From a phage, in sequence record PZ452578.1: 64,000 bases of DNA, one strand, 5' to 3'. Shown here piece after piece: positions 36,116 through 44,591 of this stretch; within the stretch, counting starts at the first letter, position 1, and each line of letters starts with the position of its first letter. The notes beneath the pieces were generated by a model that did no database searches, was not told where the DNA came from, and worked only from the letters and a program-made list of their open reading frames with translations. The translations under genes and the position numbers were made by a program.

Positions 36116-37075
36116 TCACTTCCACTGCATTTCACATGCTAACTGAATGAAAAGATAAGCTAGATGCAATTCAGTATTAGCTGCAATACCATGATACTGA
36201 TTATTTTCGCCGACAATTTCGTACATACGAATAATACTCTGTGGAGTTACACGTGAATAAATTTCTTCGGCAAGTTTACCCACGAACCACGAATAATCGG
36301 CTGCATATTTTGGTGCTAAAGCTCTGAGTTGTTTAACATCTTTATTTTTGAGAGACTCAAGAACATCATCAATAGCACCACGATCGTTAGTAACCAGTGA
36401 TAAAATACCAGCATCCAAAACACCTTTAGATGAATAACTATCGAGCTCGCCAATAGTTTTACGAAAATCAGGAAAATTCTTTTTAACCAAAGCTGCTACA
36501 ACTTTCATATCAGCTATAGCAATTCCTTCATGCTTACAGATTTCAGTCAACCGACGAATCATCTGCTTCATCATTTCAATTTTATCTTCATCGGTCGGTT
36601 GACCGAATGTAATAACTCGGCAGCGTGACTGAAGCGGTTTAATAATACCATCAATATTGTTAGCAGTAATAATAATACTACAGTTTGAACTATAAGCTTC
36701 CATAAAGGAACGAAGATGTCGCTGAGACTCTGCTAGCCCTGAACGGTCAAATTCATCAATAACGATTACTTTTTGACGACCATCAAATGAAGCTGCACTG
36801 GCAAAATTAGTCAAAGGACCACGAACGAAATCAATTTTACAATCTGATCCATTCACAAACATCATATCAGCATTTACATCATGACACAATGCTTTTGCTA
36901 CAGTTGTTTTACCTGTTCCTGGAGAAGGAGAATGAAGAATAATATGTGGAATCTTACCTTTACTTGTAATAGATTTAAAGGTTTCTTTATCAAAGGCGGG
37001 AAGAATACATTCATCGATAGTAGATGGACGATATTTCTGTTCAAGAATGTGTTCTTTTTCATTTACGGTAATCAT
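36116..37075 (-). CDS. 44: gp44 clamp-loader ATPase (AAA+)
   Basis: Internal [20 protein letters not shown] gives 319 aa as in T4; Walker A GTGKTT. Confidence 0.9.
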
Positions 37076-39227: not shown

Positions 39228-40908
39228 TCTTAGCTAAACTAAATCTACCAACTTTTTCCATCTGAATATGCTGACCATATTCTTGTGGGTCATGGTCTTT
39301 ATGCGAAATTATGAAGAAGTTGGTATCCTTCAAACCATCTAAAATTTTAGCTACATTTTTAATGCCTTCAGCATCAAATGCACCATCATACACTTCATCA
39401 AGAAATAAACAACTTATTTTAACACCTGAAACTTTTTCAGCAATATCACGCCAAGTAAATAAAAGAGCAATATCAATTCGTGCTTTTTCACCTTGACTGA
39501 ATGAAGCATAACTAAAATCTTCACGACCACGGGATTTAATTGTCTCATTAAATTCTTCATCTAATGTAAACACATAATCCGCTTCCATTATTTTAAGATA
39601 ATGGTTAATCTGCTTATTAAATAATGGAATGTACTTTTTAATAATAGCACCTTTAATACCAGAATCTTTGAGCATATCAGTCAAAATTCCTCGGTGGTAT
39701 TTTTCCATTACTAAATTAGTTTTTGTCTTAACAATTTTATCAAGTTCTTCTTGAAGCAGTGCTATTTCATCAGCATGGTCAATAAACTCAGAAGATGCTT
39801 TTTCTATAGCCGCTTTAACTTTTTTAGCTTTATCTACCGTCGTGATTAGAGATTGCTTTTTATTGCGAATATCATTTGCCAACGACTGTTGGGTTTTAAT
39901 ATTATCTCGGTATTCATCAACAAGAACTTTTAAATTATCACGGTGTGTTGAAAGCTGTTCAAATGAATGCGTACATTCAGAAACTTTATCTTTAATTTTA
40001 GAAACAACTTTATCACCGGAACTTAATTGTGACAAACAGGTTGGACATAATCCACCTTCGTGATACATATTAATGACTTTATTATACGAGTCAATTTTTG
40101 ATTTAATTAAAAATGCTTCTTGACCGATTTTATTAAATGCATCAGTCGGGTCTTCATCTAAAACAATATTAACTAATCTTTCATTAGCTTCTTCTATTTC
40201 TGATTTTAGCGTTCTAGCTTCTTTTGCCAAATCATCATACATATTTTGTAGACGAGTAAGGTTGTCACCCGTTAATTTTTTCTGGCGTTCAACGTTATCA
40301 TTATATATTTTAATTTGTTGGATAATACTATCTTTTTTAACATCAAGCACTTGGTTTTGTGAATTTAATTCACGTATTAGTGCTTTATTAAGCTTATCCA
40401 TTTCAGCTAATGTTCCTACCTCAAGCAGGTCTTCCACAAGCTTTCTTCGTGCAGGGGTCGACAAACCCATGAAAGGGATATACCCTGCTGTACCAAGGAC
40501 AACAATCTGCTTGAAACTGGCATATGACATTCCGATAAGCTGTTCAAATTCTGCTTGGAAATCTTTACTGCTGGCAGATTCATTAAGACGTGTACCGTTA
40601 ACGGTGATTTCGAAAACGTTTGGTTTTTGTCCTCTTTTGATATAGTACTTTTTCTCATCATATTCCATCCACAGTTCAACTAAAAGTTCTTTCTTATTTG
40701 TGCTGTTTATTAATTGACCTTTCTTTACATCACGAAATGGCTTGCCAAAAAGCCCAAATGTGATGGCTTCTAGCATAGTAGACTTACCACCGCCATTTCG
40801 TCCAGTAATAAGAGTTTTTTGAACCTTATCTAATTGAATGTCAATAGGATTTCCACCTACTGACATTATATTTTGATACCTAACTCGGTTTAGTTTAAAA
40901 TTCTTCAC
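39220..40908 (-). CDS. 46: gp46 recombination nuclease subunit (Rad50/SbcC-like)
   Basis: ORF track 562 aa; Walker A GRNGGGKST. Confidence 0.9.
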   Translation of the reverse strand: MKNFKLNRVRYQNIMSVGGNPIDIQLDKVQKTLITGRNGGGKSTMLEAITFGLFGKPFRDVKKGQLINSTNKKELLVELWMEYDEKKYYIKRGQKPNVFEITVNGTRLNESASSKDFQAEFEQLIGMSYASFKQIVVLGTAGYIPFMGLSTPARRKLVEDLLEVGTLAEMDKLNKALIRELNSQNQVLDVKKDSIIQQIKIYNDNVERQKKLTGDNLTRLQNMYDDLAKEARTLKSEIEEANERLVNIVLDEDPTDAFNKIGQEAFLIKSKIDSYNKVINMYHEGGLCPTCLSQLSSGDKVVSKIKDKVSECTHSFEQLSTHRDNLKVLVDEYRDNIKTQQSLANDIRNKKQSLITTVDKAKKVKAAIEKASSEFIDHADEIALLQEELDKIVKTKTNLVMEKYHRGILTDMLKDSGIKGAIIKKYIPLFNKQINHYLKIMEADYVFTLDEEFNETIKSRGREDFSYASFSQGEKARIDIALLFTWRDIAEKVSGVKISCLFLDEVYDGAFDAEGIKNVAKILDGLKDTNFFIISHKDHDPQEYGQHIQMEKVGRFSLAKIS

Positions 40909-41168: not shown

Positions 41169-41355
41169 TATCTAAAATGTTGAAGTTAAAAGATACGGCC
41201 CAATCAGTGCAGACCGTAACCTTTTTAATACAATTATCTTCAACCTCTAGTGGTTCAAACCAATATTCAATAATTTCTTTATGCCCAATATCATCTTTTA
41301 CTTCACATTCAAAATGCTGACTCATCATAACATTTTTAAATTCATCAAAAGTCAT
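41092..41355 (-). CDS. hypothetical protein (87 aa)
   Basis: ORF track. Confidence 0.55.
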   Translation of the reverse strand: MTFDEFKNVMMSQHFECEVKDDIGHKEIIEYWFEPLEVEDNCIKKVTVCTDWAVSFNFNILDNDTPKSLQDMAVSCIKDAYCEVFDI

Positions 41356-42371
41356 TGTGTTGCCTCTACATATAACTGATTTGCATATTGAATAAGTGCT
41401 TCGCGATCAGAATCAGTGATGTCTGGAATTGCATTAATGTATTCTTCCATCAATGTCTGAAGAGATTGAACTTCAACTTCTTCACTGTCATCTGACTCGA
41501 CAGAGTTATCAATCTTTGACACAACTCGTAATGAATGCACAACTTTTTCTAGTTCAGATTCGAACTTCGTTAGATTTTTGTCTACTTCAGTTACTATAAC
41601 ACGTACTGATAGATTTGTAAAATCTTTATAGTCAATTTTTCCTTTAAATGGATAATGAATTCTACGATGCCAGGTAGTATTGTTTGGAATAAATTCCATT
41701 CGTTCTGTTTCTGTATCAAACATCCAGAACCCGCGAGGGTCATTCTCGTCACCTGCTGTTAGTGTCCATGGTGTCCCAATATATCTGACGTTTGCAGCCT
41801 CAGAAATAGTATGGAAGTGACCAGACCACACTTCTTTATAAGTCTTAAGGAAATCAGGTTCAAGACCGTGAGATTTCATTCCTTTATAAAAATAAAATCC
41901 ATTCAGTTCCCAGTGACCAACACAAAAAGAAGCAGATGAAGTTTTGATGTGTTCAAGAATTTCACCAGTATTTTCTTCACACATCCAAGGAATTAAATCA
42001 ATCAAACATCCGTCAAAATCTACTGTAGTAGGCTTATCATATACTTTAACATTAGGATATTTAGCCAAAAGCTCAGTAGAAGCATTTGGATGCATTACAT
42101 TTTTATAGTGGAGATCGTGATTTCCTACAATAGTATGTAATGTGATTCCAGCGTCGTCAAGCATTTGAACTATTTCACGGGCAAACTCCATAGTTTTATG
42201 CGTGATCGCTTTTCGTACATCAAAAATATCACCATATTGAATCCATACAGTAATTCCATTTTTCTTAGAATATTCTATCGCTTGCTTAATTCCATCAATT
42301 TGAATACCGCGAATCCACTCATCATCGGCTTTAACGCCTAAATGCCAATCACCCAAGTTTAGTATTTTCAT
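41352..42371 (-). CDS. 47: gp47 recombination nuclease subunit (Mre11/SbcD-like)
   Basis: ORF track 339 aa; phosphoesterase motifs GDWHLG, GNHD. Confidence 0.9.
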   Translation of the reverse strand: MKILNLGDWHLGVKADDEWIRGIQIDGIKQAIEYSKKNGITVWIQYGDIFDVRKAITHKTMEFAREIVQMLDDAGITLHTIVGNHDLHYKNVMHPNASTELLAKYPNVKVYDKPTTVDFDGCLIDLIPWMCEENTGEILEHIKTSSASFCVGHWELNGFYFYKGMKSHGLEPDFLKTYKEVWSGHFHTISEAANVRYIGTPWTLTAGDENDPRGFWMFDTETERMEFIPNNTTWHRRIHYPFKGKIDYKDFTNLSVRVIVTEVDKNLTKFESELEKVVHSLRVVSKIDNSVESDDSEEVEVQSLQTLMEEYINAIPDITDSDREALIQYANQLYVEATQ

Positions 42372-42972
42372 GGTGTCTTTTCCATCCTAATTTAGCTGCT
42401 TTTGAAACTAGTTCTTTAATTTTTCCTTTTGTCCATTCAGGACCAGGAGGTTCATGACATAACATTTGCTTAACTCCGTTATTATACCATTTTTTACCTT
42501 TATTATGTGATGAAGCTTTAAATTTATTTGACCTTCCTTTTACATAACCTTCTGGAATATACGGTAAAAAGGCAGATTTTCCTGTTAATGGGTCATGTGA
42601 ATGTATGTTTCCTTTACAATTATGAGAACCATATAATGGATGATTTTGTCCTTTAATATCTCTTCCAAATGAACCTTTTGGAGCAGCATATGACATATTA
42701 AAGAATAATGGATTTTTAACCGCATCATGCAAACGTTGATAATATAGCTCGCATTTAATAGCTTCTTCGCGCGTATCAAATTCATCTAAAATGCATGAAT
42801 CAAATAAATGTGGGTTATCTGAAAGTTCTTCATTATAAATTTTCTTATACTTTTTAGATAAAACTGATCCATGATATCCGGCTAAATGCCTATCTAAAGA
42901 TGTAGATCCAATATAAAAAGGAGGAAGTTTATCTCCACTATATATTGTTAAATAAGTTATATATTTTTTCAT
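42349..42972 (-). CDS. GIY-YIG homing endonuclease (seg-like)
   Basis: ORF track 207 aa; N-terminal YITYLTIYSGD...FYIGSTS motif; 3' end overlaps gene 47 start. Confidence 0.7.
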   Translation of the reverse strand: MKKYITYLTIYSGDKLPPFYIGSTSLDRHLAGYHGSVLSKKYKKIYNEELSDNPHLFDSCILDEFDTREEAIKCELYYQRLHDAVKNPLFFNMSYAAPKGSFGRDIKGQNHPLYGSHNCKGNIHSHDPLTGKSAFLPYIPEGYVKGRSNKFKASSHNKGKKWYNNGVKQMLCHEPPGPEWTKGKIKELVSKAAKLGWKRHHENTKLG

Positions 42973-43109
42973 ATATCAAGAACCGTCATTGAAATGCAAA
43001 ATAAAATTATTGAAATAAATCCATCTGGAGTGCTAAAGAACCCAATCCAACATGCTCTAGTGAATAGATAAAATGCAAGAAAAAGTATCACATATCCAAG
43101 AAATATCAT
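42969..43109 (-). CDS. possible small hydrophobic peptide (46 aa)
   Basis: Own translation MIFLGYVILFLAFYLFTRACWIGFF...; GGAG RBS; stop overlaps endonuclease start. Confidence 0.3.
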   Translation of the reverse strand: MIFLGYVILFLAFYLFTRACWIGFFSTPDGFISIILFCISMTVLDI

Positions 43110-43133
43110 TATATCAAACTCCGTATAAAGCTA
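43108..43133 (-). promoter_or_regulatory. Candidate MotA-dependent middle promoter (aGCTTTA, 12 bp, TATAAT) directly after a CUUCGG hairpin
   Basis: Reverse complement reads AGCTTTATacggagtttgaTATAAT. Confidence 0.45.
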
Positions 43134-43150
43134 AAGGGCCGAAGCCCTTT
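43133..43150 (-). other. CUUCGG RNA hairpin at alpha-gt 3' end
   Basis: aaagggc-cgaa-gcccttt inverted repeat. Confidence 0.5.
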
Positions 43151-44351
43151 ATTTTGTAATAATGTCAAACTGTTCTTTAAAGCAGAAGCTTGAATCTTGA
43201 TGCTGATACAAAAATTCATAAGCTTTTTCGCGTTCACGGTCATAAAGAGTTCGGTTAGATGACAGTTCTTTAATACGTTCAAATGTTGATTCCATGTCAT
43301 TTTCATCAAACCAAATGATACCGCTATCATGCGAAGTCAAAGGAGTATTATCAACACGGAATTTTAAATTTTCGCCCGTAGATTTCCAAAATACCGGAAT
43401 TGTTCCACATGCACCAAGCTCGAGATGAGTATATTCTAAAGAACGTTGTAGATATTTTTTGTCCAACTTACTCAGCTGATAACCAAAACCGGATTTACTC
43501 ATACGTTCAAGCATTTCGCTATTTACATAACGGTCAAGAATTTGCGTTGGCAAATTAGGAGCAATTTTAATTTGGTCTACTTGATGAAGACGATAATACT
43601 CGTATGGAATTCCTTTTTCTTTAATAGGAATGAACGCTGGAGAACGTTCCAGACCTTCCATAATAGTACTTAGTCCTGCAGGTTTAAGATATTTTTCATG
43701 AAAATCAAACATCTGATAAAAACCTTTCCATGTAGTCGTACGACCAATCCAACGGTTGATATTCATGTTAATTTCAGAAACATCTTTCCAGTAGGTTGAC
43801 CGAACCTTCGCAATATCCATAGGAGGCTGAAAGTTATATACGGTCGGTGCTTCTTCAATATCATCAAACAGAGAAACTGTTTCAGGATACCATTCTTTCA
43901 TCAGAACTTTATTAAAATCGCCATTATCAGAATGACTAAAAATAACATCAGCTCGACGAACAGTTTCTTCTAATCCCAAATTTCGACGCAAAGAAAGAGA
44001 AGAATGGTCATGTTGATAAACTACAACACGAACAGAAGGTTTAATATTATCAATAATTTTTTTATAGTTATTAATGGTGTCTTCTTCTACTGAAGTAGCA
44101 GGAACTGAATTGATAATTAGAATATCACAATCATTTACCAGCTTAAGTGTTTTATCGTATTCTTTTGCCAATAAAACTGGAATTGAAAATGACTTATAAT
44201 CATGCGCGCAATTACGAGTAAATGATTTATCTTTAGCATAAACCAAAATTACTTCATGACCATTTTTAATAAACCAATCACGTTGCTCGAGTGAGAATTT
44301 TGTTACACCACAACCTTCAAGACCTCGAGCCATAAAAATACATACTTTCAT
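43149..44351 (-). CDS. a-gt: alpha-glucosyltransferase (HMC-DNA)
   Basis: ORF track 400 aa; N-terminus MKVCIFMARGLEGCGVTKFSLEQ matches T4 a-gt. Confidence 0.9.
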   Translation of the reverse strand: MKVCIFMARGLEGCGVTKFSLEQRDWFIKNGHEVILVYAKDKSFTRNCAHDYKSFSIPVLLAKEYDKTLKLVNDCDILIINSVPATSVEEDTINNYKKIIDNIKPSVRVVVYQHDHSSLSLRRNLGLEETVRRADVIFSHSDNGDFNKVLMKEWYPETVSLFDDIEEAPTVYNFQPPMDIAKVRSTYWKDVSEINMNINRWIGRTTTWKGFYQMFDFHEKYLKPAGLSTIMEGLERSPAFIPIKEKGIPYEYYRLHQVDQIKIAPNLPTQILDRYVNSEMLERMSKSGFGYQLSKLDKKYLQRSLEYTHLELGACGTIPVFWKSTGENLKFRVDNTPLTSHDSGIIWFDENDMESTFERIKELSSNRTLYDREREKAYEFLYQHQDSSFCFKEQFDIITK

Positions 44352-44401
44352 TTAATATCCTCATTGTTTTGGTTTATTTTACCAAAAATTTATAAAGCAA
44401 T

Positions 44402-44419
44402 ATAGGAGCCGAAGCTCCT
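44402..44419 (-). other. CUUCGG RNA hairpin
   Basis: taggagc-cgaa-gctccta inverted repeat. Confidence 0.45.
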
Positions 44420-44591
44420 ATCCGCATAATACACCGTATAGAGGCTCATTAGAGCTTCTAAATTTTATACGCTTATATGTTATAGTTCCTTCTGCTTTAG
44501 CTTTATCATGAGACTCTTTAAAGCGTCTCATCATTTCTACTTTAGAGGAACGAATTTTATTATCTACTTCAAAAGTCTGGATGTTCATCTT

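Follow-up and report, generated by a model that had tools for sequence, protein, structure and literature searches.

The stretch of phage DNA analysed here, 64,000 nucleotides (nt) from record PZ452578.1 and referred to throughout as the window, contains between genes 47.1 and 47 an open reading frame (ORF) of 207 amino acids (aa) which, judged by its sequence and predicted fold, is a Seg-type free-standing GIY-YIG homing endonuclease, beyond SegA–G. Comparison with related genomes further identifies this ORF as a mobile, or recently mobile, cassette. Our overall reading, to which we give a probability of about three in four, is that the cassette has no promoter of its own and would home on the start of gene 47 in genomes that lack it. 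The element is real but of an ordinary, known kind, that of the seg and mob genes of T4. The window itself is Tequatrovirus DNA, ~97% identical to its nearest records across 22 kb, and the whole a-gt/gene 47 region reads on the minus strand. The features of the locus are as follows.

44351..43149, minus: a-gt (Pfam E = 4e-236), with its stop codon at 43151..43149
43150..43133, minus: 8-bp C(UUCG)G hairpin overlapping the a-gt stop codon, a terminator-like or RNA-stabilising element of the backbone
43101..43134, minus: middle promoter P47 (MotA box 43134..43126, 12-bp spacer, -10 element 43113..43108, probable start 43101)
43109..42969, minus: gene 47.1, a 46-aa predicted membrane protein (T4 annotation NP_813808; phrog_6693, 1.5e-31)
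42972..42349, minus: free-standing Seg-like GIY-YIG homing endonuclease ORF, 207 aa plus stop
42673..42972, minus: N-terminal GIY-YIG nuclease domain, aa 1–100 (predicted model, family alignment, fold matches)
42352..42672, minus: C-terminal region, aa 101–207, presumed to bind DNA (secondary structure of the model)
42372..42972, minus: 601-bp insertion relative to T4-type genomes (alignment with T4), its boundaries uncertain by 7 nt owing to the repeat on either side
42966..42972, minus: left ATGAAAA direct repeat, at the start of the endonuclease ORF and equal to the gene 47 start in T4
42365..42371, minus: right ATGAAAA direct repeat, at the start of gene 47
42354..42363, minus: four silent substitutions in gene 47 codons 3–6, a putative immune version of the target site
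42371..41352, minus: gene 47, Mre11/SbcD-like recombination nuclease subunit (Pfam Metallophos; T4 annotation), whose 5' end is the candidate target

The ORF, which starts MKKYITYLTIYSGDKLPPFYIGSTS, and gene 47 share exactly 23 nt (42972..42349 against 42371..41352), the overlap given by an earlier, sequence-only reading of this DNA. At its other end, the ATG of the ORF overlaps the stop codon of 47.1 as ATGA. A profile search of all ORFs in the window returned no paralogue of the endonuclease.

Family of the encoded protein

The sequence-only reading had called the ORF a seg-like GIY-YIG gene, and this assignment is supported by Pfam, by fold matches and by profile similarity to SegG and SegA. 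The protein matched the Pfam family GIY-YIG (PF01541; E = 8.1e-4, 20.1 bits), and one relative, P0065, has a precomputed PF01541 match. An AlphaFold model built on 40 relatives reached a pLDDT of 83 overall and 92–98 over aa 1–90, and the top three Foldseek matches were all I-TevI, with probabilities of 0.97–1.00. The N-terminal domain matches the folds of 1ln0 and 1mk0 and displays a three-stranded sheet with flanking helices, in which the GIY and YIG motifs (ITY at aa 5–7 and YIG at aa 20–22) lie on the first two strands. Across the 40 relatives E75 and N92 are invariant, and Y7, Y11 and the FYIGS strand are nearly so. From the order of the motifs and the fold match, not from residue superposition, E75 and N92 would be the equivalents of E75 and N90 in I-TevI. 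The family also conserves the motif G-Y33-x-G35-S, found likewise in T4 SegA as GYMGSG. When the family profile was compared with known enzymes using hhalign, it aligned with SegG (95.6%, E 1.2e-8) and with SegA (93%, E 2.8e-7), the GYxGS motif included. The same profile did not match SegF, nor did hhalign yield a significant alignment with the catalytic domain of I-TevI, where only a weak and short NUMOD3-like stretch aligned.

The C-terminal half is of a different character. A linker at aa 100–120 is modelled with low confidence and is followed, in the predicted structure, by NHPLYG (a NUMOD3-like half motif), two β-hairpins, one of which includes KKWYNNG, and a terminal helix. For aa 101–207 there was no Pfam, PDB or fold match, and no NUMOD3 repeats were detected; relatives that have only the N-domain in common carry NUMOD3 (PF07460) at the C-terminal position. 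This region presumably binds DNA.

In its overall design the gene resembles those of SegG and SegA: all are free-standing, share the orientation of the adjacent genes, encode an N-terminal GIY-YIG domain, adjoin a gene of DNA metabolism and occur sporadically among close relatives. In contrast to this likeness in design, there is no similarity at the BLAST level (tblastn at E ≤ 1e-3 gave 175 records, with no T4 among the matches listed), the C-terminal region differs from those of SegG (gene 32.1) and SegA, and the insertion site, 47.1/47, is a different one. With I-TevI of the T4 td intron, the best structural match of the catalytic domain, the protein shares an arrangement of two domains joined by a flexible linker. 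I-TevI is, however, encoded in an intron, whereas the present gene is free-standing, and the zinc finger and helix-turn-helix modules of I-TevI were not found in the window protein.

Distribution of the cassette and its candidate target

Twenty-three Tequatrovirus loci, comprising 7 carriers and 16 non-carriers, were compared in detail. The hairpin and the gene 47 AUG are 779 nt apart in each of the seven carriers but 178 nt apart in each of the 16 non-carriers, and the cassette proved to be an exact 601-bp insert flanked by ATGAAAA repeats. A wider survey with a 67-nt junction probe identified 69 carrier records, of which 62 were identical to the window across the junction. An empty-site probe found 422 records with a T4-type allele of gene 47 and ~9 more that are empty with a carrier-type allele. 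The cassette is thus carried by about one in seven close T4 relatives, 69 records against ~430 without it, in line with the earlier expectation that the endonuclease would not be universal at this site. Even within a single species, Tequatrovirus teqhad, it is present in some phages and absent from others. Among 28 gene-47 loci obtained from IMG/VR, no close carrier was seen.

The seven sampled copies are all intact at 207 aa and differ from one another at 26 sites. Pairwise pN/pS was 0.00–0.13, with up to 15% synonymous divergence, which indicates that the reading frame is under selection. Flanking polymorphisms and haplotypes are shuffled independently of the cassette, a pattern consistent with its repeated transfer.

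Outside Tequatrovirus, each of the six phages examined has a full-length homologue, 50–71% identical, immediately before gene 47. The six are Dhakavirus IME540, a closely related IMG/VR contig (L025), a second IMG/VR contig matching vB_EcoM_005 (L028), Klebsiella phage SmallBear, Winklervirus LC53 and Biquartavirus L9-6, the genera being those assigned by the records of three of the six. The position before gene 47 holds with or without a-gt and 47.1, and in five of the six phages the homologue overlaps gene 47 by 4–23 nt.

We then asked which positions around the cassette vary together with its presence. The comparison covered the 1,400 nt before the cassette and the 1,040 nt after it (2,440 flanking nt) and contained 380 variable columns, only four of which were linked to the cassette. 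These correspond to nt 9, 10, 15 and 18 of gene 47 (window 42363, 42362, 42357 and 42354), all within 18 nt of the insertion point. All four changes are silent and fall in codons 3–6, where ATT TTA AAT TTA of cassette-free genomes is replaced by ATA CTA AAC TTG in carriers; the T4-type codons are kept even in phages with a gp47 of only ~72% identity. The four carrier changes are probably the signature of a target site made immune. On the evidence of this linkage and of the homologues placed before gene 47 outside Tequatrovirus, the enzyme would recognise the start of gene 47, which adjoins the conserved GDWHLG phosphoesterase motif, and carriers would be immune. A recognition site close to the insertion site is also what is seen with I-TevI; SegG, in contrast to the 18 nt observed here, reportedly cuts 332 bp from its insertion site. 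The notion that the endonuclease frame would not stay open without the four changes was rejected, as the T4-type sequence reaches the same TGA in that frame.

A comparable pattern was observed in other lineages. When Dhakavirus carriers were compared with a 92.5%-identical non-carrier, all wobble positions in these four codons differed and the next 21 nt were identical; in the Klebsiella carrier, too, gene 47 codons 3–6 are not the same as in the nearest relative without the cassette. A defined candidate target, gene 47 codons 1–7, is available together with natural sensitive, immune-empty and carrier alleles, and Dhakavirus offers a second lineage with a different set of sensitive and immune codons, in which co-evolution of a GIY-YIG enzyme and its target could be studied.

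The presumed immune-empty class comprises nine records from eight phages, BCPSen_003 and SHFML-26 among them, in which an empty 47.1/47 junction is combined with the carrier-type gene 47 allele (PV368562 [locus L037, 1829..1850], PV295200, KX130862/NC_031011, OV877085, OV876900, PQ493298, PQ356294 and PV029540). These phages look like cases of precise cassette loss between the ATGAAAA repeats, or else of pre-existing immune alleles. RB14 has one of the four carrier-type changes, nt 10 C. Two apparent truncated copies, in KNP1 (KX452694) and KNP5 (NC_055713; locus L047, 900..1000), were discarded as intermediates of decay, the apparent deletion being a run of N that represents an assembly gap.

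As a separate observation, an extra ORF lies between genes 46.1 and 46 in PhiZZ23, T2, T6 and PP01, and is not found in the window, T4 and several others. It is annotated as a homing endonuclease in PhiZZ23, T2 and PP01 and as a hypothetical protein in T6. This second polymorphic site is located ~1.5 kb downstream (window 40905..40908; loci L034 from 3893, L039 from 3292, L042 from 3292 and L045 from 3592).

The proposed homing cycle and its rivals

The comparison with cassette-free genomes shows a 601-bp insertion at the ATGA overlap by which 47.1 is otherwise joined to gene 47. In entering there, the cassette has taken over the original start-codon context of gene 47, with its own 3' end now lying 23 nt inside that gene. 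Transcription would be passive and could follow two routes: (i) from the pre-existing MotA-dependent promoter P47, with a start at ~43101 and a 129-nt leader, and (ii) on read-through transcripts of a-gt that continue past the UUCG hairpin. The endonuclease ORF lacks a Shine-Dalgarno sequence, and the 47.1 stop codon is overlapped by its AUG, hence its translation is probably weak and coupled to that of 47.1 on read-through RNA. When carrier and cassette-free phages infect the same cell, the protein would cleave the allele without the cassette at the first ~20 nt of gene 47 or beside them, and recombinational repair with the carrier genome as template would then install the cassette. The insertion, along with the four silent changes at wobble positions of gene 47 codons 3–6, would shield the carrier itself. 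If the enzyme is active, localised marker exclusion around 46/47/a-gt would be expected in crosses of therapeutic or laboratory T4-like phages.

Several observations weigh against this reading. With regard to the protein, (i) the PF01541 score of 20.1 bits lies below the gathering cut-off of 22.6; (ii) the position of the essential Arg27 of I-TevI is not conserved, the window protein having R28 and its relatives K, N or Q; and (iii) sequence searches of PDB, with both the protein and the family profile, and of NCBIfam gave no useful matches. With regard to the target, (iv) the four changes sit in the 3' overlap of the endonuclease ORF itself and break homology, so that they would travel with the cassette even without selection for immunity; (v) cleavage hundreds of bp away from the enzyme's own gene is known for free-standing Seg enzymes (PMC2988022), and the true site could thus be outside the 2.4 kb compared; and (vi) a single record, ERS-1 (PP337211), combines the cassette with a T4-type gene 47 allele. 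The ERS-1 record is marked UNVERIFIED and contains homopolymer indels in the hairpin, in the promoter spacer and in the endonuclease, as well as a 4-nt insertion in gene 47. We treated it as unreliable as an example of a frameshifted copy on a sensitive allele, and its pairing of cassette and allele is likely a sequencing or assembly artefact.

A stronger version of the homing reading can also be put forward, tentatively and at somewhat less than even odds. It holds that the endonuclease belongs to a lineage specialised on the initial ~20 nt of the Mre11-like gene 47 in several genera of T4-like phages, in which nuclease and immunity form one inseparable cassette, translation runs as a chain from 47.1 through the endonuclease to 47, and the empty sites with an immune allele arose by precise excision. 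If this were true, the protective wobble changes would be written inside the endonuclease ORF itself, where recombination could not separate them from it, and the translation of an essential recombination nuclease would have been re-wired into the 47.1–endonuclease–47 chain. The rare empty sites with an immune allele would then stem from exact excision between the ATGAAAA repeats, so that a single data set would display every stage of homing.

The best of the rival explanations, in our view an unlikely one, is that the nuclease has been co-opted for a task other than its own spread, be it for exclusion of competitors at 46/47/a-gt, for local recombination or amplification, or for setting the level of gp47 via the translational chain. 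The association with the gene 47 start in several genera, the strong purifying selection and the overlap of the AUGs with the preceding reading frames are all in keeping with such a role, and a 2026 paper reports that SegB promotes amplification of anti-defence loci (PMC13096335). However, the gene is absent from ~86% of Tequatrovirus records at an otherwise identical locus and is thus dispensable, and marker exclusion is a normal consequence of homing, not an alternative to it.

Even less probable is the view that the ORF is a catalytically dead or decaying remnant, kept only because its 3' end supplies the start region of gene 47, such that imprecise deletion would damage an essential gene. 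The lack of conservation at the canonical Arg position and the sub-threshold Pfam score fit this view, as do the overlap with gene 47 and the eight phages in which an empty site and a carrier-type allele give the appearance of precise loss. A decaying gene is, however, difficult to reconcile with the low pN/pS maintained over up to 15% synonymous divergence, with seven intact copies out of seven and with the invariance of E75 and N92; moreover, SegA, listed as an active endonuclease (Table 1, PMC2988022), has the same GYxGS in place of the Arg-containing segment.

The upstream control region, related cassettes and annotation

The sequence-only reading had bundled the endonuclease with a hairpin, a MotA-box promoter and a long leader. 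The first of these, a CUUCGG hairpin at the alpha-gt stop (43150..43133), is present as described; AAAGGGC-UUCG-GCCCUUU folds with a ΔG of -11.8 kcal/mol (z = -3.4; 0 of 200 shuffles fold as well). Its tail on the transcribed strand, UUUAGCUUUAU, lies partly within the stem, and a terminator scan called the opposite strand only; the a-gt hairpin is annotated as a terminator in SA20RB and G9062, and alignment shows the same hairpin in T4.

The promoter was likewise found. The MotA-box-like sequence TTAGCTTTA at 43134..43126 is followed after 12 bp by TATAAT (43113..43108), in agreement with the consensus and spacing of middle promoters, a MotA box (a/t)(a/t)(a/t)TGCTTtA near -30 and 12 ± 1 bp from a sigma-70 -10 element (PMC2988021). 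The spacing of the earlier description needed correction: the arrangement is AGCTTTA-N12-TATAAT, but N11 when counted from the 8-mer AGCTTTAT used there. P47 is a MotA-dependent middle promoter of T4 with its start site at 36576 (Table 1, PMC2988021), which maps to window 43101, close to the previously suggested start near 43105; the -10 element then occupies -12..-7, with the MotA box 12 bp upstream. The promoter segment is base for base the mapped P47 of T4. Given this identity and the excess of CTTCGG in the window described below, chance does not account for the features listed by the sequence-only reading.

As for the long leader, the 46-aa hydrophobic ORF noted earlier exists and is T4 gene 47.1. 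The leader was put at ~140 nt; measured from the probable start at 43101 to the endonuclease AUG, it is 129 nt, does not include the 47.1 AUG and hence does not contain that ORF as a whole. The AUG of 47.1 overlaps the -10 hexamer of P47, 8 nt upstream of the start site, and its Shine-Dalgarno sequence GGAG (43122..43119) lies inside the promoter spacer, both as in T4. It follows from these positions that 47.1 could be translated only from a-gt read-through RNA that crosses the hairpin. In T4, 47.1 overlaps gene 47 directly by ATGA.

From the comparison of sequences, the hairpin, the promoter and 47.1 are the backbone's own control region for genes 47 and 46 and not features of the endonuclease, because the segment from the end of a-gt through the last 47.1 codon is 100% identical to that of T4, which is without the endonuclease at this site, and because the same stretch is near-invariant in the 23 genomes, carriers and non-carriers alike; the 47.1 protein is conserved in all 23 as well. 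That these elements arrived with the endonuclease, or evolved for it, was suggested by their position directly upstream of the ORF, and is now very improbable: the comparison with T4 refutes it, the elements persist in 16 cassette-free genomes, and P47 was mapped in T4 itself. A structured regulatory leader was dropped as well, since the 206 nt that begin at the 3' end of a-gt, take in the hairpin and the leader and finish at the endonuclease AUG folded with an ordinary value (z = -0.12), with no structure beyond the hairpin. What is known of transcription in this region is therefore unchanged, the promoter, the hairpin and 47.1 being those of T4.

Nor was a dedicated promoter for the cassette detected; a sigma-70 scan returned 14 sites against 15.9 in shuffled sequences, and none was callable. 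One sequence inside the endonuclease ORF, TGGTATAAT at 42489..42481 on the minus strand, matches an extended -10 element perfectly and precedes the gene 47 AUG by ~110 nt. The conserved W-Y-N codons of the family (KKWYNNG) give rise to this sequence, and no MotA box stands at an appropriate distance from it.

The absence of a promoter is in line with the "promoterless cassette" habit described for the seg and mob genes of T4 (PMC2988022), and the present cassette would use P47 in just this way. Beyond other cassettes of this type, it also inherits the start-codon context of its host gene (ATGA with 47.1) and extends 23 nt into the beginning of gene 47. The same design is found one gene away in T4, where mobB is situated between a UUCG hairpin with the promoter PmobB (start 38682) and a-gt. 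Unlike the endonuclease described here, mobB belongs to the HNH family and occupies a site between a-gt.2 and a-gt; its target is listed as unknown (PMC2988022, Table 1). The window, which is without mobB, contains the same sequence as the PmobB promoter region of T4: directly before a-gt (44440..44350), a second UUCG hairpin (44421..44402, minus strand; ΔG -16 kcal/mol) is followed by TTGCTTTAT and TAAAAT.

The name under which the gene is commonly deposited deserves comment. Its PHROG match, phrog_10820 (7.6e-94), is labelled "HNH endonuclease", and this product name is followed in many records, including RefSeq entries such as NC_054901, NC_054920 and NC_054916; the exact protein of the window is deposited as a "hypothetical protein", and a member of its UniRef cluster as a "GIY-YIG domain-containing protein". 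That the ORF encodes an HNH enzyme can be dismissed as having a negligible chance of being right, given that no HNH family was matched in Pfam at E ≤ 0.1, that no HNH structure appeared among the significant fold matches, all of which were GIY-YIG, and that the profile matches SegA and SegG. The HNH label is wrong, the protein being a Seg-like GIY-YIG enzyme, and dozens of GenBank and RefSeq entries for T4-like genomes thus call such an enzyme an HNH endonuclease or a hypothetical protein. Literature searches returned neither a name for the endonuclease gene nor a publication characterising it.

Lastly, C(UUCG)G hairpins are abundant in the intercistronic regions of T4, and the window fits this pattern, with 31 occurrences of CTTCGG, 19 of them on the minus strand, against 11.6 ± 3.4 expected (0 of 100 shuffles reached 31).

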